A stretch of 29,945 nt of DNA, taken from the IMG/VR virus record IMGVR_UViG_2671181114_000018; one strand, written 5' to 3'. The translations under genes and the position numbers were made by a program. This stretch comes from a virus. Taxonomy: Duplodnaviria; Heunggongvirae; Uroviricota; Caudoviricetes. Under the pieces are notes generated by a model. The model searched no databases. It saw only the letters and a list, made by a program, of their open reading frames with translations, and was not told the origin of the DNA. Positions 1 through 29,362 of this stretch are shown here, piece after piece (position 1 is the stretch's first letter; each line of letters opens with the position of its first letter).

Positions 1-1365
1 TTATGGACGGAGGCAATACTCGGCAATTCGAAGCGCTGAAATGTGCTTTTCATGGATCATGTCGTTCCCGCATCCGCATTCATTCTCACATGGTTCTCGC
101 ACCCATACACCATCGCTATTTTTTCGGTAGAACCATCCAGGACGAAAACCTGCGTTCTGCATATACATCCCTGGGTGAACGACAACTAATTCACATACTT
201 CAATCAGGTCAGTCTCATGGCATATGATTCCAATTCCCTTCTGATACACGGCCTGAAAGTCTTTATTGACATGTTTTATTAGTTCATCTATCTCAAAAGC
301 GACGTAATTTTTTCCTTTAAGAAGCCGCTCTATCTTTGGCAAGCGCAATGGAGAATTGTCATTATCTGTACCAAAGAGAATTATGCTGGGTGAACTTATT
401 GTAACGCCGCCTGTTAATTCGCCTCTCATCGTTTCAATAGAGTCAAATAGCTCAGCTATTTTCCCACCACGATAGAAAGCAATACTAGGAGAAACGTTTT
501 TCACATAACTATCATGATATTCAGGTAATTCAAGTGACCGCTTGAATACAGGAATATCTATATTTGGATCCCTTAATTGTTCAACTTCCCGCCAAGGTAA
601 GTCTAATAACTCCTTGAGGATAGGATCCTCCGTAACTGACGGGAATAAGGAATTTGTATCAGTGATTGCATTCAATACGGCATATTGTTTTAAAAGTGAC
701 CGACTAGCTTTTATCTGTGCAATAAAGCAATTTTCTGGAACTGGCTCTCCATATAGCGGCCCTAGTAACCAAGCATCTTGGGCCTGCATTCTGGGTCGGA
801 AACCCTTAATTTCAATATCAGAAAGATCAACCAAACCAAGACGAGATGCTAGTGATTTATCTAGAATGTAGAGATATCCATCTCCATCTTCATAATAATA
901 CCTTACCGCTTTTTTTATCAGCCATATGGGGTTTTCATTACAGTCTTCGCACATGTCTATCTTTGGCGGTGGAGATGGTTTTATTGACAGTGAACATTTA
1001 TGACTCGCAAACCAAGCGGCAACTGCAGGGTTAGTGGTACAGTCAACATAGAATGATCTCCATCCATAGTGTTGTAACAGTGCCTGTACATATTCCAGAT
1101 CGTTTGCATGGCTACCAATTACTCCCTCAAGCACACTTGCAGCATAGCTAATCCACTTTATCATCGTTGACTTGTTACATTCATCGCGATCAAAAGAAGC
1201 AAGTACGGATGGTACCTCCTGCTTACCATAGAGAGAATTTTGACCTCGAAATAATACATTGTCACCAAACTGTGCAATTACAGCTTCCAGCTCACTAATA
1301 GTTCTGACCTCAAATTGTTCCAATTCTTCCCTCTCCCCTGAATTCGCAATCATGGCATCTTGCAC
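1..1365 (-). CDS. Hypothetical accessory protein with N-terminal FRG-like motif and Cys-rich C-terminus (candidate defence/cargo gene)
   Basis: Complete 454-aa ORF (stop = revcomp of nt 1-3). Contains 'VLFRGQNSLYGK' near the N-terminus, which I recall as the FRG domain signature, and Cys clusters (CEDCNENP; PCENECGCGNDMIHEKH). Visibly AT-rich compared with the phage structural genes. Function not known from sequence. Confidence 0.45.
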   Translation of the reverse strand: MQDAMIANSGEREELEQFEVRTISELEAVIAQFGDNVLFRGQNSLYGKQEVPSVLASFDRDECNKSTMIKWISYAASVLEGVIGSHANDLEYVQALLQHYGWRSFYVDCTTNPAVAAWFASHKCSLSIKPSPPPKIDMCEDCNENPIWLIKKAVRYYYEDGDGYLYILDKSLASRLGLVDLSDIEIKGFRPRMQAQDAWLLGPLYGEPVPENCFIAQIKASRSLLKQYAVLNAITDTNSLFPSVTEDPILKELLDLPWREVEQLRDPNIDIPVFKRSLELPEYHDSYVKNVSPSIAFYRGGKIAELFDSIETMRGELTGGVTISSPSIILFGTDNDNSPLRLPKIERLLKGKNYVAFEIDELIKHVNKDFQAVYQKGIGIICHETDLIEVCELVVVHPGMYMQNAGFRPGWFYRKNSDGVWVREPCENECGCGNDMIHEKHISALRIAEYCLRP

Positions 1366-1439: not shown

Positions 1440-1728
1440 CCATCGGAAAACCATCACAACCATCACGCCTCTTAAAATCATATCTTAACCACATGAATAA
1501 TATAGATAAATGTTGTGACGGTAAAACCATCACAAAACATAACGTAAACCGTCACACCCAATAAATTCAGTAAGTTATAAAACAGAGTTGTGATGATTTA
1601 AGACCGTCACACTGTGATGCTGTTGTGATAGTTTTGTGATGGTTTTCAATACCATTATTTACTTATATATATCATATAGATAGATACTATTATTAAATTT
1701 TGTGACGTTTGTGACGGTTTTCCGATGG
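1440..1728. repeat. Iteron-like array: about 12 copies of octamer TGTGA(C/T)GG / CC(A/G)TCACA in both orientations, bounded by 19-bp inverted repeats, with an AT-rich core
   Basis: Read directly: arms ccatcggaaaaccatcaca (1440-1458) and tgtgacggttttccgatgg (1710-1728) are reverse complements with one mismatch. Octamers at about 1451, 1460, 1514, 1526, 1549, 1589, 1604, 1613, 1624, 1635, 1701, 1710. AT-rich stretch around 1650-1700. No ORF of 60 aa or more in the region. Confidence 0.8.
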
Positions 1729-2345
1729 TCCCCCTCAATTTTTGAAAAAATCAGAATCGGTCAGAAATCACCCTGATTTGTTGGTAGTTTTGTATATCTA
1801 TCTGTTAGTGACTTGAACACTGGAGCGTATACGTTAATGCAGGTATGGCGATGGTTCAGGCTGTGCAAAGTATTTCAGTTCCGCATTTCACTGCCATTCC
1901 GCGCCAGAGCACGTCAGTTAAGGCCTGGACACTTCCACGCACTGACCTGATCTCGCTGCGACCATTACGTAAAAAGTCACGTAATCGCTGTTGTTCCCGC
2001 ATGTAATCAGGCTCCGATATTTTTCATCCACAGCCGGCAATCACACAAAAACTGAAATCCTCGAAATCTGTTTCACACATTTCAGTTGGCGAACTACTGC
2101 CAAAGCCCCAGCGCTGGCGCGGTCTGGCGATGTGTTTTGTACCACCGGAAAAACTGAAATCATTCTCAACACGAAAACCGCAGGCGGGTGCGGTGTAGCG
2201 CCGTTTTCGTCACTTCCGCCGTTATTTCGTCGTGGCAGGCTGCATCAGCGCCTTGCTGCGCTTCTGAAGTTAATCAGGTTGGGATGAACGGGTGCAGATA
2301 ATTGCGGCGCTCAGAATGCGTCTGGTGAGGTCTGGGAATGGGTAC

Positions 2346-5663: not shown

Positions 5664-7451
5664 TTATCTTAACTCCGTCCAGGCCCTCAATATCGTAGAG
5701 ACACCAGAAACATCAACCCGGTAGGTAAAGCCCGGTGGGACAATGAAAAACGCGGTTGCAAGCGATGTGTCTAAAGCGGTTGCACCACCACCACCAAATT
5801 CAATCCCATTGATATAAGCATAAAGGTTTGCTGACGTTCCCCCAGTAATTCGGACATATACTGCTATCGGAAACCCTGTGGAATTGGTGTATGTCACCCC
5901 GGTTCCACGAGATGATTTTAAATCCTGTAATGTTTGCCCTTTACCTAGAGATGGGTAAGTTTGTATTGCAGTAGTTACTGCCGCCTGCGGCATGACTAAA
6001 GAATTTGATCCCCCCATTGAATTAACAAGCTGAACAAGACCTGCATTTGTGATAGTTGCCCCGTCCGCTGTGTATTTTGACTGCGCCAGTTCATATGCAG
6101 ATTGCGCCTGTTTCAGCACATAATTTACAGCGGTGGTGGTGGCAGCGGTTTTTGAATCAGGCGCACCTGTATTGTCACTGAGCATGACAATACCTTTCTG
6201 CGACGTTGTCGCTTCAACTGCACTCCATTTCTTTTTAGCAATTTCCGCTGCGGCCATTGCCGTGTCATAAGCAATTTTTACCGCACCTGACGTTGCAGCA
6301 GTCTCGTTACTTTCATCTGTTACTCCACCATTAAGACGAACCAGCCCCTTTTGTGAGGTAGAAGCATCGTAAATACCTATGTTTTGCCTGAATAATGCAG
6401 GGTTAAGGATATCCCCACCATTCCGCTCTTTAGCAAGACGCGCATTGGCATTATCCATCGCGATTTTGACTGCTTTCGGTGTAGCGGCCTGTCCTTCACT
6501 AGTGCTGTCTGTCGCGCTGCTTAACTGGGTGAATCCCTTCGCGCTGGTCGTGGCATCAGGATGATTTCGGGACTGCTCATGCTTTTTAAGCGCATCGCTG
6601 GCCTGTTGTTCGTTCAGCGTCCCTTTGGGCCGTAAATCCGTGATATTGCCATTCACATCAATGCTGGCCACGGCAAACACATAATGCTGTACGCCGTTCT
6701 GCACGTAATCCGTCAGGTTTTCCGCCACGGTGATTTTGCACTGAGCATTCCACATACTGGTAAGCGATCCTGTCCAGCACACATCCAGCCAGACTTTGAC
6801 CGGTTTTGTCGTCACGGTGATATTCTGATTGTCAGCCAGTGACGTACGCAGTCCTGCCACATAGCCGGTACCTTTGGTCACAAAGAACTGATTGCCCGTT
6901 TTACTGACCAGCCAGCCATCGCCAAAGAATGCCGCAGCCCCGTAAATATCCGTGTTTTCCAGGCGCTGACGTTCATCCATTCCGGCCATTCGCGCCGTGA
7001 AATCAATCTGCCAGGTCTCAGCCGGTGTATTAATCCCGGTTTCAGTCTGTGCGCCGTTGTACTCCATCAGAAACGAGCGGGTAAGCACGTTCCCCTGTTG
7101 CCCTTCCGCTGTTTTCAGCTTCTGCTGCACAGGCGCATGAACAATCATGGCCAGGGTGCCACTGGCCTTATTCAGCAGACCGATCCAGTTAAAACTGAAG
7201 TCGCCCACATCCGCGCCCAGAACGGTGGAATACACCACGCCGTTTTCATTCACCACGCCAGTGCGGGTAACAGGCTGCCGGTGCACAATCTGCTCCACAG
7301 GTGGCAGTGCTTCATTCCGGTCAACGGGTGTATCCGGGTTCAGTCCTGGCACATTTGCAAACACAAATTCATCCAGTAACACCGGCTCGCCGGTTGCACC
7401 CTGCTGCGCTTTCCAGTGCTCAAATGCCAGCGTGATAGCTGTCTGTGACAT
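5664..7451 (-). CDS. Tail fibre protein (P2 H-like central motif)
   Basis: 595 aa; internal 'HEQSRNHPDATTSAKGFTQLSSATDSTSEGQAATPKAVKIA' matches the conserved P2 gpH-family motif (HEQSRRHPDA..AKGFTQLSSATNSTSETLAATPKAVK) as I recall it. Followed by Tfa. Confidence 0.8.
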   Translation of the reverse strand: MSQTAITLAFEHWKAQQGATGEPVLLDEFVFANVPGLNPDTPVDRNEALPPVEQIVHRQPVTRTGVVNENGVVYSTVLGADVGDFSFNWIGLLNKASGTLAMIVHAPVQQKLKTAEGQQGNVLTRSFLMEYNGAQTETGINTPAETWQIDFTARMAGMDERQRLENTDIYGAAAFFGDGWLVSKTGNQFFVTKGTGYVAGLRTSLADNQNITVTTKPVKVWLDVCWTGSLTSMWNAQCKITVAENLTDYVQNGVQHYVFAVASIDVNGNITDLRPKGTLNEQQASDALKKHEQSRNHPDATTSAKGFTQLSSATDSTSEGQAATPKAVKIAMDNANARLAKERNGGDILNPALFRQNIGIYDASTSQKGLVRLNGGVTDESNETAATSGAVKIAYDTAMAAAEIAKKKWSAVEATTSQKGIVMLSDNTGAPDSKTAATTTAVNYVLKQAQSAYELAQSKYTADGATITNAGLVQLVNSMGGSNSLVMPQAAVTTAIQTYPSLGKGQTLQDLKSSRGTGVTYTNSTGFPIAVYVRITGGTSANLYAYINGIEFGGGGATALDTSLATAFFIVPPGFTYRVDVSGVSTILRAWTELR

Positions 7452-8054: not shown

Positions 8055-9225
8055 GACTCACTACCAGTGACTTCAGGCGCGGCACATTCAGCTCACTGGT
8101 AATGTCACCCAGTGAAAAGGACAGCGAATCCGCCAGCGCAAAGGTTTTGTGGATCTCCCGTCCCAGCTGAGAAAACGAGAACCGCGAATATGGCCACGTC
8201 TTTCTGACGTCAAAATCAGCGTTTTCACGAAAAGCACAGCGGATCATGTTTTCAATCCCGGCCTTCAGGCTGTTACGTTCGTCGTCTGTCAGGTTGGCCA
8301 GATTTCTGACGTACACCGTCACCGCCAGATCGTGGCGAGTTTCCGGCATGGCGTAACACTGCATATCGTCACCGTGGCCGTGATGCCCCTGCGTGTTGAT
8401 GTAATCATTCACCGCATTCACAAACGGCGCGGAAGTCACCCCGCTGTCCAGCAATAAATAGGCATTTGCGGTACCCGGTCCCCTCGGCGCTTCATGCTCA
8501 AAGAAAATCCGGTCAATACTCAGCCCGGCAACACCGGCAATCATTGAACGGTAAACCGCATCCGTGTGGTAATTGCCCACCAGGTTGAACTGGTTGCGGC
8601 AGCGTTCACGCAGTTCATCATCACTTTCTTCATCGGCACCCGGCACTGTCAGCCAGTTTTCCTCGCTGGCCACATGACTGATGCCGTCAACGGCCACAGG
8701 TAAAATGCGGTAATACCCTGGCGCAAGGTTATAGGCTCCCCCGGCTCCGGTGGCTTTCACCGGCAGCAGGGCACTGGCCGTGCCGGAAGGGATCACCACA
8801 TCGGCCGTGGTCGCCAGTTCGTACACCCTGCCGTTAATGCGTTCAGTCTGGATAACTGTCCCGGCCTTAACCGTCACAACGGCTTTGGTATCCTCCTTAA
8901 AGAAACGGATCACACCCTGTGCAGCGCTGGCGGGTTTCGCCGTCACGTTCACCGCCCAGGCCAGCAGACGCAACATGCTCCCGCTGGCCGTGGCCACAAA
9001 CATATTGGCCAGTACCGTGAACACCAGAACATCTTTCAGCCACATCACCGGTGCAGTCACAATGGCTGTGATTAAGCGCCAGAACGGTGACATGCGGGAT
9101 GTATTGGTGATGATGCCCTCCTCAGCCGCAATAGCATTAAAGCGATCCCGTACTTCAGCTTCTGTCACCGGCATCCCGCTGGTTTTCACTACTTCCTCAA
9201 AATCAACCTGGGGCTTTTCCGTCAT
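8041..9225 (-). CDS. Baseplate J-like protein (P2 J / Mu gp47-like)
   Basis: Track ORF is 8041-9279 (412 aa); likely start is the internal Met 'MTEKPQVDF' at 9225, giving an ATGA overlap with the upstream gene's stop. Size and position fit Baseplate_J. Confidence 0.6.
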   Translation of the reverse strand: MTEKPQVDFEEVVKTSGMPVTEAEVRDRFNAIAAEEGIITNTSRMSPFWRLITAIVTAPVMWLKDVLVFTVLANMFVATASGSMLRLLAWAVNVTAKPASAAQGVIRFFKEDTKAVVTVKAGTVIQTERINGRVYELATTADVVIPSGTASALLPVKATGAGGAYNLAPGYYRILPVAVDGISHVASEENWLTVPGADEESDDELRERCRNQFNLVGNYHTDAVYRSMIAGVAGLSIDRIFFEHEAPRGPGTANAYLLLDSGVTSAPFVNAVNDYINTQGHHGHGDDMQCYAMPETRHDLAVTVYVRNLANLTDDERNSLKAGIENMIRCAFRENADFDVRKTWPYSRFSFSQLGREIHKTFALADSLSFSLGDITSELNVPRLKSLVVSLENE

Positions 9226-19272: not shown

Positions 19273-19415
19273 ATTGCCTCCCTTCCTGCTGCGGTTTTCA
19301 GTATCGCCAATTAAATTAACCGCCGCATTCACTTCATTTCGGATATAAACAATTAGCCGAACACATCAGAAATAAAGCAGGATTTAATAAAGAAGCGCCC
19401 GTGCATAATGTGTGC

Positions 19416-21200
19416 ATGGCTAAATACTCAGAAGAATTAAAAGGCGTTGCGCGGGCGCTTTATTTAAAACGTTATACCCCGCAGGAAATTGCCAGTGAAC
19501 TTAATCTGCCTAACAGACGCATTGTCTATTACTGGGCAGCGAAATATTGCTGGGCGGAATTACTCAGCCACGAATCAACCGAGGACGCATTAAACCGCCG
19601 CATTCAGTCTCTGACATTACGTGAAGGGAAATCCGAGCTGGAGCTGCGGGAGCTGGACAGCCTCGTTTCTCACCTGGTGAAACTGCGAGCACAGCATAAT
19701 AAGCATCAGGAAAAACTGGCAGAAATTAAGCACAGCGAAAGTGATGCGCCGACGTCCCGTCAGTCCGGTGGAGACGAAAAGCCCCGTAAACGTGGCAAGT
19801 ACAAAAAAAATGATATCAGCGGGCTGACGCAGGAAGATTTCGACCGGTTCGCGCTCGAGCACCTTTTCGGCTACCAGAAACACCTTCGCGCCAATCTCAA
19901 TCAGCAAATCAGGAACATCCTGAAAAGTCGCCAGATTGGCGCAACCTGGTATTTCTCAATAGAAGCCTTTGAAAATGCGGTTATGACAGGCGATCCGCAA
20001 ATCTTCCTGTCCGCGTCAAAGGCTCAGGCTGAAGTGTTCCGCAGCTATATCGTCAACATTGCGGAGCAGTATTTCGGCGTGGAGCTGACAGGCAACCCCA
20101 TCCGCCTGTCCAACGGTGCGGAGTTGCGCTTCCTGTCCACCAATAAGAACACCGCCCAGTCATACAGTGGTCATCTGTATTGTGATGAATATTTCTGGGT
20201 ACCCAACTTTGCAAAATTAAACGAAGTGGCCAGCGCAATGGCCACACACGACAAATGGCGCACCACCTACTTTTCCACTCCCAGCAGCAAAACACACCAG
20301 GCTTACCCGTTCTGGACAGGTGAAGAATGGAAGCGCGGCAACAAAAAACGCGCACGCGTGGCGTTTCCAACAGAGAAGGAGCTGCGTGACGGTGGACGGT
20401 TATGTCCTGATGGCCAGTGGCGCTACATCATCACACTGGAAGACGCGATTGCGGGCGGGTTCAATCTGGCCAGCATCGAAAAACTACGTAATCGCTACAA
20501 CCGCGACACTTTCAACATGCTGTACATGTGCGTTTTCGTGGACAGCAAAGACAGCGTTTTTTCGTTCTCCCATGTGGAACGCTGCTGTATTGATCCGGAT
20601 ATCTGGGAGGATCATGACGAAGACCTGCCCCGGCCATTCGGCAATCGTGAAGTATGGGCAGGCTATGACCCGGCTCGCAGCGGCGACACCTCAACCTTTG
20701 TCATTGTCGCCCCGCCGATAGTGGCCGTCGAAAAATTTCGCGTACTACGCGTATTCCACTGGCAGGGAATGAACTGGAAATGGCAGGCGGCACAAATCAA
20801 AAAACTGTTTGGCCAGTACAACATGACTTACATCGGGATTGATATCACCGGGCTGGGGAGTGGTGTCTTTGAAGATGTGCAGCACTTTGCCATGCGTCAG
20901 GCGGTGGCTATCCGCTATGGCGTGGAAACCAAAAACCGCCTGGTGATGAAGATGATCGACGTTATCGAAGACAACCGCGTGGAGTGGGACAAGGAGAAAA
21001 CTGAAATCGCCGCCAGCTTTATGACCATCCGCAGAACGTCCACGGCCAGCGGTAACGCCATGACGTTTGTTGCCGACCGTACAGCTGAAACCGGCCACGC
21101 TGACAGTTTCTGGGCTATCGCCCATGCCATAGACAACGAACCATTACACTTTGAAAACCAGCGCAAATCACGCTGGGGTAACTTAGGGAAAGCAGCATGA
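19416..21200 (+). CDS. Terminase ATPase (large) subunit (P2 P-like)
   Basis: Track ORF 19401-21200 (599 aa); probable start 'MAKYSEELKG' at 19416. Size and position (P then Q, divergent from O-N-M-L) as P2 gpP. Confidence 0.85.
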   Translation: MAKYSEELKGVARALYLKRYTPQEIASELNLPNRRIVYYWAAKYCWAELLSHESTEDALNRRIQSLTLREGKSELELRELDSLVSHLVKLRAQHNKHQEKLAEIKHSESDAPTSRQSGGDEKPRKRGKYKKNDISGLTQEDFDRFALEHLFGYQKHLRANLNQQIRNILKSRQIGATWYFSIEAFENAVMTGDPQIFLSASKAQAEVFRSYIVNIAEQYFGVELTGNPIRLSNGAELRFLSTNKNTAQSYSGHLYCDEYFWVPNFAKLNEVASAMATHDKWRTTYFSTPSSKTHQAYPFWTGEEWKRGNKKRARVAFPTEKELRDGGRLCPDGQWRYIITLEDAIAGGFNLASIEKLRNRYNRDTFNMLYMCVFVDSKDSVFSFSHVERCCIDPDIWEDHDEDLPRPFGNREVWAGYDPARSGDTSTFVIVAPPIVAVEKFRVLRVFHWQGMNWKWQAAQIKKLFGQYNMTYIGIDITGLGSGVFEDVQHFAMRQAVAIRYGVETKNRLVMKMIDVIEDNRVEWDKEKTEIAASFMTIRRTSTASGNAMTFVADRTAETGHADSFWAIAHAIDNEPLHFENQRKSRWGNLGKAA

Positions 21201-22216
21201 AAAAACGGAAATACAGGGAACGCCGCACCGTTACCAAACAACGCCATATGAGCCTTATCACGCTGGGCAAGCCAGAACCCATTCTGACGACCGGCACGAA
21301 CTATACAGACGTCTGGTATGACAATGAGGCGGAACACTGGACGCTCCCGATTGACAGGCTGGCACTGGCACAACTGGTGAACCTGAACGCGCAGCACGGC
21401 GGCGTGCTGTATGCCCGTCGCAATATGGTGACAGCAAATTATGATGGCGGCGGCCTGACACATGAGCAACTGGGCGCGGCCGTATTTGACTGGCTGACGT
21501 TCGGTGATGTGGCCATTCTCAAAGTACGTAACGGCTGGGGGGATGTGGTTGCACTGTACCCGCTGCCGGCGCTCTATACCCGCCAGCGTAAGACCGGGGA
21601 ATTTGTTGTACTTCAGCAGGGTGAACCGGTGATTTATCCGCCTGAAGATATTATTTTTCTCAGGCAGTACGACCCGCAACAGGCTATTTATGGTCTTCCG
21701 GATTACATCAGCGGCATCCACTCCGCCCTGCTCAACGGTGAAGCCACGATTTTTCGCCGGCGTTACTATCACAACGGTGCTCACACGGGCGGTGTGCTCT
21801 ATTCCAATGACCCGAATATGACCGATGAAGTGGAAGAAGAAATTATTCAGAAGCTGGAGCAGTCAAAGGGGATCGGGAATTTCAGCACCATGTTTGTGAA
21901 TATCCCCAAAGGTGATCCGGATGCCATCAAATTTATCCCGATTGGTGATATCAGCGCCAAAGATGAGTTTCAGAACGTGAAAAGCATCAGCGCTCAGGAT
22001 GTACTGACCGCGCACCGTTTCCCGGCCGGTCTGGCCGGAATTATCCCCACGAACGGGGCAGTAATGGGGGATATTGAGAAAGCGGCCAAAACATACCGCA
22101 AAGCGGAGATTTTACCTATTCAGCGCATGTTCACCGCCGCAGTGGAGCAAGAAAGTGATGTACCACCCCACCTGTACCTTAATTTCCTGAAAGACAGTGA
22201 GCTGGAAGGTGATTAA
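21197..22216 (+). CDS. Portal (capsid vertex) protein (P2 Q-like)
   Basis: 339 aa immediately downstream of and overlapping the large terminase gene; size as P2 gpQ. Confidence 0.85.
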   Translation: MKKRKYRERRTVTKQRHMSLITLGKPEPILTTGTNYTDVWYDNEAEHWTLPIDRLALAQLVNLNAQHGGVLYARRNMVTANYDGGGLTHEQLGAAVFDWLTFGDVAILKVRNGWGDVVALYPLPALYTRQRKTGEFVVLQQGEPVIYPPEDIIFLRQYDPQQAIYGLPDYISGIHSALLNGEATIFRRRYYHNGAHTGGVLYSNDPNMTDEVEEEIIQKLEQSKGIGNFSTMFVNIPKGDPDAIKFIPIGDISAKDEFQNVKSISAQDVLTAHRFPAGLAGIIPTNGAVMGDIEKAAKTYRKAEILPIQRMFTAAVEQESDVPPHLYLNFLKDSELEGD

Positions 22217-22590: not shown

Positions 22591-23598
22591 TTATTTGCTT
22601 TTATTTCCATCATTATTAGGATGATTTACAGGAGTAAGGCCTGAGGCTACATCATTAGCAGTTTGAAGACTGGTAGGAATCAGACCGGGCCAATTTGCCC
22701 CATTTAGTCCCCAATTGAGTTTAGCTAAATTCTCACCAGGCCAGGTTGATTTCGCAGAATTTAAATCAAGTCCCTGAAGCCCCTGAAGCCCCTGAACCCC
22801 CTGAAACCCCAGAGAACCTAAAGTCGGCCTGGCAAAAGGCAGTGTATTCTTAGATATTTCCTGATTAATATCGTCTAATTTATTTTGATTCGCTATAATT
22901 TTGGCATTCAAATCCATCAATTCTTTTTCTTTTAATTCCAATTCCGTCCTCACCTTCGAAATTGAGTCCATAGCATTATAATAAGAATTGGTAACTGACT
23001 GAACCTCTTTTCCCTTTTCCTTTATTAACTCATTAATATCCCTGAGCTTTACCTGAGCGTTATTATATTTATCTTCAAGCGCGTTTGTATCATATTCGAT
23101 AGCTTTATTTGCCTTTTCAGCATTTAACCTCGCTTTTGCGTCTGCATATTCATACTCGACATTTTTATTTATTTCGTCTATTTTTAAATCAAGAGCACTC
23201 TGTTTTCTCTTACTATCATTTGTACTCTTTTTCGTAAGCACTCCATTTTGTATTACATCAACAACATATGAGATAAAAGGAGTGCCAACTACAAATATAA
23301 TTGAGGCAACAAATGGATACCAAAACGTATGAGTATGAGGGATGCTAATTCCAAAAAAGACACTATTTGATGGTAACGCCTTTATTTTTTCAATACGTTG
23401 TTCTATGTCCAGACTGAACGAGAATAAGAGTAATAGAGTGCGGTCCCAGTTACAGAGAATCCAAGAGGATATGAAGCATAGAAAAAATGGATTTGATAAC
23501 CGTTGATTAACAGCTTTCACTACCGGTTCAGTTGTAACTGATTTTACCGCATCCAAAGCTTTATCTATTGTTTCGCTCATTTTAGGAGTATCAACCAT
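22591..23598 (-). CDS. Accessory membrane-anchored coiled-coil protein with C-terminal collagen-like G-x-Q repeats (candidate superinfection-exclusion/defence cargo)
   Basis: 335-aa ORF (start may be the internal Met 'MSETIDK'). Hydrophobic N-terminal segments ('FFLCFISSWILC', 'VASIIFVVGTPFISYVV'), long K/E-rich heptad region, C-terminal 'GFQGVQGLQGLQGL'. Visibly AT-rich; sits between the replication gene and ogr/portal, the position of tin/old in P2. Confidence 0.5.
   Translation of the reverse strand: MVDTPKMSETIDKALDAVKSVTTEPVVKAVNQRLSNPFFLCFISSWILCNWDRTLLLLFSFSLDIEQRIEKIKALPSNSVFFGISIPHTHTFWYPFVASIIFVVGTPFISYVVDVIQNGVLTKKSTNDSKRKQSALDLKIDEINKNVEYEYADAKARLNAEKANKAIEYDTNALEDKYNNAQVKLRDINELIKEKGKEVQSVTNSYYNAMDSISKVRTELELKEKELMDLNAKIIANQNKLDDINQEISKNTLPFARPTLGSLGFQGVQGLQGLQGLDLNSAKSTWPGENLAKLNWGLNGANWPGLIPTSLQTANDVASGLTPVNHPNNDGNKSK
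22772..22807. repeat. In-frame tandem repeat, 4 units of 9 bp (ccctgaagc x2, ccctgaacc, ccctgaaac) inside the cargo gene
   Basis: Read directly from the plus strand; on the minus strand the units encode the G-L/F/V-Q triplets of the collagen-like tail. Confidence 0.9.
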
Positions 23599-26408: not shown

Positions 26409-26627
26409 CTATATTCTGTACTGCTTGTTATATCTTTCATGCGTCATTAACTCCCAGCTTCTGCCCTTATCCTTACTAAGCAAACGCCAGCGATAGGAGA
26501 CATGAACAGAGAAATAATGATTTGGTTTTATAACCTGATATATCTTTTTGCCGTTGTAATATTCTGTCAGCGCTGAAAATGCCTTGTTAATGACACTTTC
26601 ACTTGCATGAGAGGTCACTTTCAGCAT
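26409..26627 (-). CDS. Hypothetical early protein
   Basis: 72-aa ORF immediately upstream of the primase-helicase gene in the same operon; AT-rich; no motif recognised. Confidence 0.35.
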   Translation of the reverse strand: MLKVTSHASESVINKAFSALTEYYNGKKIYQVIKPNHYFSVHVSYRWRLLSKDKGRSWELMTHERYNKQYRI

Positions 26628-26629
26628 AG

Positions 26630-27199
26630 TTATTTCACACTGGCTATTTTAACGAGATAAGTCCAGACGTAAGACACTAGTTTAGCCTGATAAATAGCGT
26701 CATATAGTGCATGGTGCGGTGTACCTTCAAATTTAATAATATTTTTGATGTTCAAACCTAAATCTTTGGCCAGCGCATTTATCGTCCTGACATCCCGGTC
26801 ATTCCAGTAATTCCACATCGGGCTTAACAAGCCTACCTTATTTGCAGCATGGCGGAGGATAACGTTATCAAACGACGCTCCATTACCCCAAACCTGTAAA
26901 TGATGTGCATCAGTGAGTTCACTGATAAAGTGGAAAAGGTCAGAAATGGCCGTATCCAGCGGACAATTCGCATCATTAATAATCTCGCTCCTTGCTTCGG
27001 AGGACTGACGCAGCCACCACAGAACTGTATCGGCTCCCATAGTGCAGTCGTAATCAACGCTACTTGCAAGACTGACACGGCGATAGAAAGTTTCCCCCAT
27101 TTCACCCGTTTCCGGATTAAATAATACAGCGCCAATAGCGGTAATTGCTGCCGTTGGTTTGTTATCCATTGTTTCAAGATCAATCATTAAATGTTTCAT
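26630..27199 (-). CDS. 3'-5' exonuclease (DnaQ-like fold)
   Basis: 189 aa beginning 'MKHLMIDLETMDNKPTAAITAIGAV...', an Exo I-type motif (D-x-E); later 'HHALYDA' resembles the Exo III motif. Common in P2-like early operons. Confidence 0.65.
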   Translation of the reverse strand: MKHLMIDLETMDNKPTAAITAIGAVLFNPETGEMGETFYRRVSLASSVDYDCTMGADTVLWWLRQSSEARSEIINDANCPLDTAISDLFHFISELTDAHHLQVWGNGASFDNVILRHAANKVGLLSPMWNYWNDRDVRTINALAKDLGLNIKNIIKFEGTPHHALYDAIYQAKLVSYVWTYLVKIASVK

Positions 27200-27208
27200 A
27201 TCGGTTCC

Positions 27209-27544
27209 TTAACGTTGGGAAGCTGCAACAGGTTTTAGATGGGAGTTATTTATTCTTAATGCGTTAGTCGCCAGAGACATAAGACCTGAAATATTGTTTT
27301 CGGTTGGGATGTTTCCACCGAACACCATAAGCGTGATTTTATGAAGTTCCTCAAAATCTTCACTGTCATTATTAAAACGAGCAGTAGAGGTTATACCTTC
27401 AAGACATTTTGCAAGCTGAATGTTTAATTCCATTAACTGCAAACCATCGCTATGAACAGAGAACGTTTCTTTATCAATGGCTTTAGCCTGAGCGTGATAA
27501 TTTTGCAACAGGCTGCGTATGAGAGTCGCGTATTTAGTTTTCAT
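27209..27544 (-). CDS. Hypothetical early protein
   Basis: Track ORF 27209-27577; likely start at internal Met 'MKTKYATLIR' (27544), just after the cox stop. No motif recognised. Confidence 0.35.
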   Translation of the reverse strand: MKTKYATLIRSLLQNYHAQAKAIDKETFSVHSDGLQLMELNIQLAKCLEGITSTARFNNDSEDFEELHKITLMVFGGNIPTENNISGLMSLATNALRINNSHLKPVAASQR

Positions 27545-27816
27545 CGTGGTTCTCCCAAACCCAGCCACATTAACCACCCATCCCTAATTTCCTTCGGGCG
27601 GCTCTCATACGCTAATTTCATTCCGTTGTTCCAAGCAGGAAGATAAATCCAATATTCTCCAGCTCGACCAGAGGTGGATTGCGGGTCTGTCATTTCAACA
27701 ATAGGTAATTTCCCTTTTTCAATCATCCCCTTTACAGCTCGCTCCGATTTTCCAATGAGCCGAGCGAATTCCTGATAGGGGACAGCATCGCTGGTTAGAA
27801 CAATTTGCTTAGTCAT
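27541..27816 (-). CDS. cox: Cox-like excisionase / early-promoter regulator
   Basis: 91 aa, first gene of the early operon, divergent from C. Length and sequence closely resemble P2 Cox as I recall it ('...IPYQEFAKLIGKS...GRAGEYW.YLPAWNNG...'). From memory. Confidence 0.75.
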   Translation of the reverse strand: MTKQIVLTSDAVPYQEFARLIGKSERAVKGMIEKGKLPIVEMTDPQSTSGRAGEYWIYLPAWNNGMKLAYESRPKEIRDGWLMWLGLGEPR

Positions 27817-27933: not shown

Positions 27934-28233
27934 ATGTCAAACACGATAGGCGAAAAAATAGTACTAATTAGAAAGTCTGAATACCTAAGTCGACAGCAAC
28001 TAGCTGATATATCTGGCATTCCTTATGGGACTCTTAGTTATTACGAAAGCGGTCGTTCTACCCCTCCGACTGACGTTATGATGAAAATCCTCCAAACACC
28101 GCAGTTCACTAAATACACCCTATGGTTTATGACTGACCAAATCTCGCCAGAATCCGGTCAGATCGCGCCGGCTCTCGCACACTTTGGGCAAGATGCAACA
28201 ACCTCGCAGCCCTCAGACCAAAAGACTGGCTAA
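27934..28233 (+). CDS. C: Immunity repressor C (P2 C-type)
   Basis: 99 aa; 'MSNTIGEKIVLIRKSEYLSRQQLADISGIPYGTLSYYESGRSTPPTDVMMKILQTPQFTKYTLWFMTDQISPESGQIAPALAHFGQ' is near-identical to P2 C as I recall it, same length. Confidence 0.9.
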   Translation: MSNTIGEKIVLIRKSEYLSRQQLADISGIPYGTLSYYESGRSTPPTDVMMKILQTPQFTKYTLWFMTDQISPESGQIAPALAHFGQDATTSQPSDQKTG

Positions 28234-28348
28234 CCATTTACCGCGAATACATGCACCACAAGTGCATGCTACTGGCAGCTAAATTTTGCACCAGACATTA
28301 CAAAGAGTTAGGAACGAGAAGAGAACGAACCCATCGGAGGGCTTTCTT

Positions 28349-29362
28349 ATGACAGTTAAGAAACTCGATGATGGTCGGTATGAAGTGGATATCAGACCTG
28401 CCGGGCGCAACGGAAAGCGCATCCGCAGGAAGTTCGACAAAAAAAGCGAGGCTATCGCTTTCGAAAAACACACGCAGTACAACCACCACAACAAAGAATG
28501 GCTTTCGAAGCCGACAGACAAGCGGCGTCTGTCAGAGCTAACGGCTATATGGTGGGAGTTGAAAGGAAAGCACGAGGAACACGGAAAATCTAATCTTGGG
28601 AAAATTGAAATATTTACCCGGATAACTGATGACCCCTGTGCGTTCCAGATAACGAAAGCACTTATCAGCCAGTACAGCGCTACCCGCAGAAGCCAGGGTA
28701 TAAAGCCATCAAGCATTAACCGGGATTTAACCTGCATAAGTGGCATGTTCACCGCATTAATTGAGGCTGAATTGTTCTTCGGTGATCACCCGATACGCGG
28801 TACGAAAAGACTGAAAGAACAGAAGCCGGAAACCGGCTATCTGACACAGGATGAAATTAGCTTGTTGCTTTCGCAACTGGACGGAGACAACAAGAAGATT
28901 GCGATTCTTTGTCTTAGTACCGGCGCAAGATGGGGTGAAGCCGCGCGGCTGAAAGCGGAGAACGTGATCCATAACCGCTGTACGTTTGTTAAAACCAAAA
29001 CGAACAAACCACGCACTGTGCCAATTTCTGACGAGGTGGCAAATATGATCGCCAACAACAAGCGAGGCTTTCTTTTTCCGGATGCAAACTATCCAGCATT
29101 CAGACGGTTGATGAAGGAACTGAAACCTGATCTTCCGGCCGGACAAGCAACCCACGCATTGCGTCACAGCTTCGCAACCCATTTCATGATTAACGGTGGG
29201 AGCATCATCACGCTGCAACGTATCCTTGGCCATTCGCGAATTGAGCAAACTATGGTCTACGCACACTTTGCCCCGGAATACTTGCAGGACGCGATCGCCC
29301 TCAATCCGTTACGTGGAGGAATTGAGGTTCAGAGTGTCCACACAGTGTCCACAGACGAGTAA
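28349..29362 (+). CDS. int: Tyrosine integrase (P2 Int-type)
   Basis: Track ORF starts at 28286 with TTG; real start is Met 'MTVKKLDDGRYEVDIRPAGRNGKRIRRKF' at 28349 with GGAGGG upstream. Catalytic C-terminal 'HALRHSFATHFMINGGSIITLQRILGHSRIEQTMVYAHF' (R..H-x-x-R...Y). Downstream of C as in P2. Confidence 0.9.
   Translation: MTVKKLDDGRYEVDIRPAGRNGKRIRRKFDKKSEAIAFEKHTQYNHHNKEWLSKPTDKRRLSELTAIWWELKGKHEEHGKSNLGKIEIFTRITDDPCAFQITKALISQYSATRRSQGIKPSSINRDLTCISGMFTALIEAELFFGDHPIRGTKRLKEQKPETGYLTQDEISLLLSQLDGDNKKIAILCLSTGARWGEAARLKAENVIHNRCTFVKTKTNKPRTVPISDEVANMIANNKRGFLFPDANYPAFRRLMKELKPDLPAGQATHALRHSFATHFMINGGSIITLQRILGHSRIEQTMVYAHFAPEYLQDAIALNPLRGGIEVQSVHTVSTDE

Follow-up and report, generated by a model that had tools for sequence, protein, structure and literature searches.

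SaPI Rep proteins recognise their iterons through a C-terminal winged-helix domain, and in SaPI origins 6–12 iterons flank an AT-rich centre, no fewer than two per side, running in opposite directions (PMC9371898). The PICIs of Gram-negative bacteria have the same layout, which was shown to function as a pri-rep-ori set and has been described as common to no other replicon (PMC6092414). P4 needs two cis regions located 4.5 kb apart. Theta plasmid origins (RK2, pPS10, R6K, and F) combine phased repeats beside an AT-rich unwinding element with an initiator encoded by the element itself. Plasmid iterons are typically direct repeats of 17–22 bp, and the winged-helix Rep recruits the host DnaB.

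Many Peduoviridae use a phiCTX-type primase-helicase in place of the P2 gpA rolling-circle initiator. The search of the literature revealed no mapped origin for phiCTX-type replicases, nor for the phages phiCTX, Smp131, and RSY1. The phiCTX record (NC_003278) annotates repeats and two IHF sites only, with no function assigned.

We analyzed a 29,945-bp stretch of viral DNA (IMG/VR record IMGVR_UViG_2671181114_000018; hereafter the window). It is a P2/HP1-like (Peduoviridae) prophage, and among named phages it is closest to Escherichia phage ESSI2_ev239 (Evevirus; hereafter ev239), whose replicase is 94% identical. The comparisons presented below make it likely that an iteron array in this prophage (Table 1) is the vegetative replication origin and the predicted cognate binding site of the 896-aa primase-helicase that the prophage encodes. 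It is most likely an origin of the ordinary SaPI/PICI/P4 iteron kind, found in a phage group without an earlier mapped origin.

The array resembles the origins of SaPIs and PICIs in its short iterons, arranged as two opposed sets around an AT-rich region (PMC9371898, PMC6092414). The proposed initiators are also alike: a helicase of the SF3 type, which in some of those elements is fused to a primase, with a C-terminal winged helix (winged-helix-like here, by model). The differences are that the host element is a complete temperate myovirus and not a satellite, that the iterons are octamers, that the Toprim primase is fused in one 896-aa chain, and that the replicase has no significant sequence similarity to solved Rep structures. 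The location differs as well. SaPI and PICI origins lie immediately 3′ of the rep gene, an arrangement that we found in phage phi3 but not in the window, where the integrated prophage has the two at opposite ends, with the array ~4.5 kb from the replicase gene (measured in the ev239 record), across int and attP and beside cos.

P4 also has octamer iterons (TGTTCACC) in both orientations, with pairs 9–11 bp apart in ~300-bp regions, and its alpha protein has the domain order that we predict here: Toprim primase, SF3 helicase, and C-terminal DNA-binding domain. The P4 ori has type 2 repeats in addition. Unlike P4, the window has a single array, and its outer pairs are inverted whereas the crr halves are direct 120-bp repeats. 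The phiCTX "R3 repeats" occupy the same position between attP and cos, cover ~290 bp of AT-rich DNA, and comprise 12 GGTAAT repeats at nearly the same spacing; the phiCTX replicase is 41% identical to that of the window. However, GGTAAT and TGTGAYGG are unrelated sequences, and in contrast to the two annotated IHF sites of phiCTX, the strict IHF consensus WATCAANNNNTTR has no match within the window. The phased repeats beside AT-rich DNA recall theta plasmids too, but the sites here are of 8 bp in both orientations, and the proposed initiator itself has helicase and primase domains. Judged in silico, the array fits the SaPI/PICI/P4 kind in all features except the adjacency to the replicase and, unlike P4, the single site.

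Array anatomy and the search for further iteron clusters

The exact octamer TGTGAYGG was present eight times in the window, and seven of these copies lie at 1451–1717. The number expected for the whole window was 2.24 ± 1.56, and none of 100 shuffles reached eight. With a relaxed 3′ end (YGTGAYD, the last two positions degenerate) we found 12 sites, from 1452 to 1716, with the orientations --+--+-+++++. The array therefore has at least six short (5–8 bp) repeats in ~300 bp of non-coding DNA (7 exact, 12 relaxed), as opposed sets with at least two iterons per side of an AT-rich segment.

A first-pass annotation, made from the letters alone, had counted about twelve copies; this holds for the relaxed motif, while the exact octamer gives only the seven. 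The rest of its description was confirmed. The periodicity of 9–11 bp corresponds to spacings of 9 bp at 1452/1461 and 1701/1710 and of 11 bp in the tandem triple; near-palindromic iteron pairs are present at 1514–1534 and 1604–1620; and the lowest-GC 50-mer, which starts at 1654, has 12% GC, against 50% for the window. The enrichment of the octamer over the rest of the prophage, which it had named as a check, is given by the counts above. The near-perfect terminal inverted repeats of 19 bp were recovered with one mismatch, and they sit within a longer inverted repeat of 27 nt that is 89% complementary.

Table 1. Features of the 29,945-bp window, with their coordinates
Feature	Position	Strand	Description
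FRG-domain cargo gene	1–1365	-	Pfam FRG; PADLOC candidate family PDC-S15, E 3.7e-9
Iteron array, proposed ori	1440–1728		12 TGTGAYGG-type octamers, both orientations, around AT-rich DNA
Left outer iteron pair, 9 bp apart	1451–1467	-	TGTGATGG (1451–1458) and CGTGATGG (1460–1467); inside the left arm (1440–1466) of the 27-nt inverted repeat
Gap, left outer pair to first internal iteron	1468–1513		~53 bp start to start; most variable portion of the array among close relatives
Internal iterons	1514–1556		TGTGACGG (1514–1521, +) and TGTGATGG (1527–1534, -), facing each other as a near-palindrome; TGTGACGG (1549–1556, -)
Internal iteron cluster	1589–1642		TGTGATGA (1589, +), TGTGACGG (1604–1611, -), tandem triple (+) at 1613/1624/1635
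AT-rich core, proposed DNA-unwinding element	1643–1700		~58 bp, 12–14% GC; between the tandem triple and the right outer pair
Right outer iteron pair, 9 bp apart	1701–1717	+	TGTGACGT (1701–1708) and TGTGACGG (1710–1717); inside the right arm (1702–1728) of the inverted repeat
Probable cos	2184–2198		GCGGGTGCGGTGTAG; ~460 bp from the array; context, outside the proposed origin
Tail and baseplate genes	from 2382		
Terminase	19401–21200		
Portal	21197–22216		
Replicase, 896 aa	23715–26405	-	Toprim + DUF5906 (SF3 helicase); proposed cognate initiator
Cox-like	27541–27816	-	
C repressor	27934–28233	+	
Integrase	28286–29362	+	

The array is conserved in ev239 and in the E. coli relatives. An extra 11-bp iteron unit, TGTGATGCTCT, was observed in the E. 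coli NT1F10 lineage (L002; alignment A1, columns 259–269), which has four tandem copies where the window has three. This is iteron copy-number variation within the proposed origin. A "terminator" predicted at 1513–1535 was rejected, as it is merely the iteron palindrome. Neither the search of the whole window against Rfam nor the tRNA scan gave a match, and readings of the array as a structured RNA or tRNA were rejected.

The search across the window for a second iteron cluster comparable to the array, of the crr kind, gave none. The next-densest 300 bp holds four TGTGAY (8871–9170) and lies within the baseplate J-like gene, which also has an iteron-like 12-mer, AACCGTCACAAC, at 8869–8880. These sites probably occur by chance and are not comparable to the array.

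The replicase might bind the array as an accessory cis element, for example a crr-like enhancer or a site of copy control and incompatibility ("handcuffing"), with initiation elsewhere. P4, with its two separate iteron regions, ori and crr, each bound by alpha, is a precedent, and the array is several kilobases away from the replicase gene. However, without a second cluster the window offers no other candidate site for the replicase. Moreover, the array has its own segment of 12–14% GC with iteron flanks, as SaPI and PICI origins do (PMC6092414), and the compact satellites of 11–13 kb with this replicase family also have a single array. We regard an accessory role as unlikely.

Domains and predicted structure of the replicase

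The replicase is composed of a Toprim primase, an SF3 helicase (DUF5906, with a Walker A motif), and a C-terminal domain that is helical and winged-helix-like. BLAST against P4 alpha gave weak but collinear matches, one over the Toprim region (E 0.004) and one over the Walker A region (E 0.002), and the search of PDB sequences gave no meaningful match. In the AlphaFold model of residues 690–896, which is confident (pLDDT 92.8), a helical bundle is followed by a winged-helix-like unit. The best relevant structure matches of this model were the initiator helicases Cch and SaPI Rep, all of them weak, and the fold of the P4 origin-binding domain was not recovered among the matches. The first-pass annotation had considered a replicase of the P4 alpha type. 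What stands of this is at most a distant relationship, suggested by the collinear likeness; the P4 origin-binding domain did not emerge from the C-terminal model. The SF3 helicase and C-terminal winged-helix domain of SaPI- and PICI-type initiators are both present, the latter as a winged-helix-like domain predicted by the model.

Sliding-window identity between replicase clades showed that the C-terminal third is the most divergent everywhere. This pattern does not separate the iteron groups, and no specificity region was located with it. Two other genes lie beside the replicase. A 72-aa ORF (26409–26627) co-varies with it among close relatives and is absent from distant family members; it might conceivably act as a co-factor. 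The exonuclease varies freely within the TGTGAYGG group (48–98% identity).

The array and the replicase occur together and change together

Every ORF of the window was compared by tblastn with nine phage genomes. Of the window proteins, the replicase alone was shared by all the genomes with an array, namely ev239, phiCTX, RSY1, Smp131, a Halomonas phage, and phi3. ESSI-2 and vB_YenM_324 have neither this replicase nor the array and encode a P2 gpA-type replicase instead; both have the structural, terminase, and cos module of the window (51–85% protein identity).

The same strict co-occurrence was found on one backbone. For this comparison we selected IMG/VR contigs with a 77–100% identical baseplate protein and cross-referenced, by contig name, the searches for baseplate-adjacent DNA, the replicase, and gpA. 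Where the primase-helicase was at least 85% identical to that of the window (four informative contigs), 12–13 TGTGAY sites were present in every case. A single informative contig had a 61% identical primase-helicase, together with 12 GTTACA sites in the same place, and all 16 contigs with a gpA-type replicase were without any array. The resulting counts, 5/5 against 0/16, overstate independence because the contigs are interrelated. Three contigs (L058, L074, and L079) were left out as uninformative, as they end short of the array position. L074, with a 61% identical replicase, was considered as a counter-example and rejected, since the contig stops ~45 nt before the expected array. An insertion of ~600 bp with terminator-like hairpins (~6230–6860) separates its conserved DNA near cos from the place where the array is expected.

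Exchanges were observed in both directions. In IMGVR_UViG_3300010279_000222, Cox and C are 100% identical to those of the window, Int 98%, a 122-aa ORF 96%, the terminase and portal 99%, and the baseplate protein 97%, but the replicase is only 61% identical and GGTTACA iterons lie at the same place. Conversely, ev239, L145, and L150 share with the window only 34–38% identity in Cox, 37–46% in C, and 47–53% in Int, whereas their replicases are 93–95% identical and TGTGAYGG is retained. In these comparisons iteron sequence tracks the replicase and not Int, C, or Cox. In the first case the unchanged cox-C-int block separates the replicase from the array. Since the two flank this block, matched pairs need two exchanges, or selection.

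The array could alternatively belong to packaging, as an accessory site for terminase binding similar to cosB, or to attP, as arm sites for integrase or Cox. It lies between attP and the probable cos, and the phiCTX record annotates repeat regions around both attP and cos. Nevertheless, the 16 gpA-replicase contigs without the array have the same cos 15-mer and structural module, and the arrays of phi3 and the satellites do not adjoin terminase or portal genes. With respect to attP, the arm-type repeats of the integrase differ in sequence from the iterons (GTGTCCACA twice in the window and GTCCACA six times in ev239), and the swaps run against it: the iterons are unchanged where Int and Cox have diverged and changed where both are nearly or fully identical. 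Both versions are very improbable in our estimate.

The direct repeats GTGTCCACA of the window, at 29335–29355, overlap the 3′ end of the integrase gene, and the GTCCACA repeats of ev239 are found just after int (L003, ~26741–27040). Both sets are probably arm-type sites for the integrase and differ from the iterons.

Array geometry across the family

Each family member that we examined had one AT-rich array, with an iteron sequence specific to its clade, and five iteron types were distinguished across the replicase clades. As a positive control, the k-mer scan applied to the arrays also recovered the annotated crr of P4. GGTAAY is the iteron of phiCTX (35100–35390), RSY1, Smp131, and the Halomonas phage. 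In phi3 the iteron is CCGGAACA, and the array lies immediately 3′ of the primase gene. The iteron (C)GGTTACA was found in two P4-like satellites of E. coli, 11–13 kb in size, whose replicases are ~51–56% identical to that of the window.

The arrays differ little in layout, and the iteron sequences of distant members are unrelated. An outer pair spaced 9 bp apart is followed by a gap of 61–75 bp, mostly AT-rich, and by a tandem cluster at 10–12 bp with one inverted iteron; then come a gap of 52–56 bp and an inverted outer pair, again at 9 bp. The 9-bp outer pair and the 52–56 bp gap, at the equivalent place, occur also in phiCTX, RSY1, Smp131, phi3, and L044, and the 11-bp tandems are at the same place in phiCTX, RSY1, Smp131, and L044. 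The gap of 61–75 bp (start to start) beside one outer pair was present in all family members examined, and it holds the lowest-GC 50-mer of the array in phiCTX, phi3, Smp131, L044, and L043.

This conserved spacing with 9-bp outer pairs identifies the "terminal inverted repeats" as the outermost pairs of iterons. The first-pass annotation had offered them as a sign of a MITE-like, non-autonomous mobile element, and a unit of ~290 bp bounded by a 27-nt inverted repeat (89%) does have that appearance. The reading did not survive. All 39 E. coli genomes with a match contain a single copy, at the same prophage position. The flanks, GAGTTAG/CCATCGG...CCGATGG/TCCCCC (the slash marks the edge of the unit), show no target-site duplication. 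The supposed terminal repeats are iteron pairs that recur internally, and homologous arrays with other iteron sequences sit at the same locus or adjoin the replicase gene. A mobile element is therefore extremely improbable.

The two satellites (L043, 16039–27302; L044, 14388–26258) are P4-like, satellite-type islands of E. coli chromosomes. They encode two integrases, an HTH regulator, an Icd-like protein, the family replicase, an Ogr/Delta-like protein, and a capsid protein of the P2 family. The satellite arrays are homologous to, and collinear with, the array of a full-size phage (L060, 6360–6640), with 72% mean column identity and shared flanks. The cognate replicases are 49–52% identical overall and 22–38% identical in the C-terminal region. 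We considered similar C-terminal domains as the cause of the common GGTTACA and rejected this, because L143, the 61% identical phage replicase, and the satellite L044 are only 22–38% identical there. On these alignments, iteron type is not a simple function of C-terminal sequence similarity, and origin exchange or cross-activation between phages and satellites is a possibility.

Prophage context and cargo

On the circular phage genome the elements follow one another as replicase - cox - C - int - attP - cargo - array - cos - tail genes. The FRG gene of the window occupies the variable slot between attP and the array, and the array lies 75 bp upstream of its start. Its place is taken by an acyltransferase gene, encoded on the opposite strand, in ev239 and in the relatives from E. 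coli. Homology to E. coli prophages of the raiA site begins at 1430, just outside the array, and the cargo differs to the left of this point. From there to 2372 the window consists of unannotated, conserved non-coding DNA that is 86% identical in 19 E. coli prophages adjoining raiA.

This position had led the first-pass annotation to consider an operator array for the FRG gene. The location upstream of the gene would suit an operator or promoter array, and weak sigma-70-like matches do fall over the left part of the array, but there are 4 against 2.6 expected, and the promoter scan gave matches at chance level only. The array remains 78–87% identical where the convergent acyltransferase, with its own terminator, replaces FRG, and both its presence and its sequence follow the replicase type and not the cargo. 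We therefore abandoned this reading as very unlikely.

The region from attP to the array is a hotspot for cargo genes (window 1–1365, - strand; L001, 7825–8928; L003, 27190–28293; L257, 810–3728). In a further raiA-site prophage the cargo is an ATP-dependent nuclease with a YafO toxin-antitoxin pair. A relic of the array, 57 bp long with two iterons (corresponding to 1546–1602 of the window, 91% identity), was found in another raiA-site prophage (L257, 2378–2557; E. coli EC42405 and 16 other genomes); it adjoins seven copies of an 8-bp tandem repeat, CGCTTCAT. Two IMG/VR contigs of 15.8 and 14.0 kb (L017 and L018) are internally deleted prophages that have lost most structural genes. The array is retained in full, along with the integrase, repressor, and replicase, cos, the acyltransferase cargo, and a portion of the terminase-portal region.

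The window encodes another candidate cargo gene, a 335-aa ORF (22591–23598, - strand) between the portal-side regulator and the replicase. It belongs to PHROG 4780 and has a weak LmuB-like PADLOC match (E 5e-5). Its absence from the nine compared phages and from close relatives points to a second variable cargo slot.

The 15-mer GCGGGTGCGGTGTAG is probably the cohesive end (cos), since each end of the record for Cronobacter phage ESSI-2 has a copy, and so do nearly all of the 80 relatives that we examined, whether the array is present or not. In the relatives it is placed ~186 nt past the baseplate gene (~600–650 nt in some). About 650 bp of conserved non-coding DNA (1730–2380) extend from the array to the last tail gene, and positions 2110–2300 are almost invariant relative to the E. 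coli relatives. Repeats of the type (A)ACTGAAA(T) are located at ~2049–2060 and ~2150–2160. Because such motifs are also the top repeated k-mers in relatives without the array, they may be terminase recognition sites.

Proposed initiation and significance

The first-pass annotation had put forward an origin or crr among its candidate readings. The origin is strongly supported by the co-occurrence with the replicase, the reciprocal module swaps, and the conserved geometry, and a separate crr-like second site was not found. Co-variation of iteron sequence with the initiator, as seen in the reciprocal swaps and in the contigs of one backbone, is what we would expect of a replicase and its cognate origin.

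We infer the following course, in which initiation takes place inside the array. After excision and circularisation, the winged-helix-like domain at the C-terminus of the replicase would bind the TGTGAYGG iterons. The opposed 9-bp outer pairs and the 11-bp-phased triple would nucleate replicase oligomers, and these would melt the adjacent AT-rich core, the segment of 58 bp and 12–14% GC at 1643–1700. The SF3 helicase would then load itself, and the Toprim domain would prime synthesis for the host polymerase.

The assignment would give the phiCTX-type primase-helicase a precise candidate origin of ~290 bp together with its cognate protein, and would account for the function-less "R3 repeats" annotation in the phiCTX record. 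It would also extend the origin of two iteron sets around an AT-rich region, called peculiar to PICIs (PMC6092414), to full-size temperate phages. For the annotation of prophage hotspots, the array is useful as the fixed boundary of a cargo slot that holds the FRG candidate defence gene, the acyltransferase, or the nuclease and toxin-antitoxin genes. The added interest is modest, and it lies in the family-wide conserved geometry and in the natural swaps of specificity.

A broader proposal, to which we give slightly less than an even chance, is that the array is one case of a ~300-bp origin "chassis" common to a family of Toprim + SF3 replicons, with matched exchange of iterons and replicases. 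Members of this family are P2-like and HP1-like temperate phages of Enterobacteria, Pseudomonas, Ralstonia, Stenotrophomonas, and Halomonas, and P4-like satellites of E. coli. If the proposal is true, helper-type phages and satellites with homologous GGTTACA arrays would be able to replicate, or to pirate, each other's origins. The natural swaps of replicase and iterons are material for the engineering of specificity and for questions about the cross-activation of phage and satellite origins.
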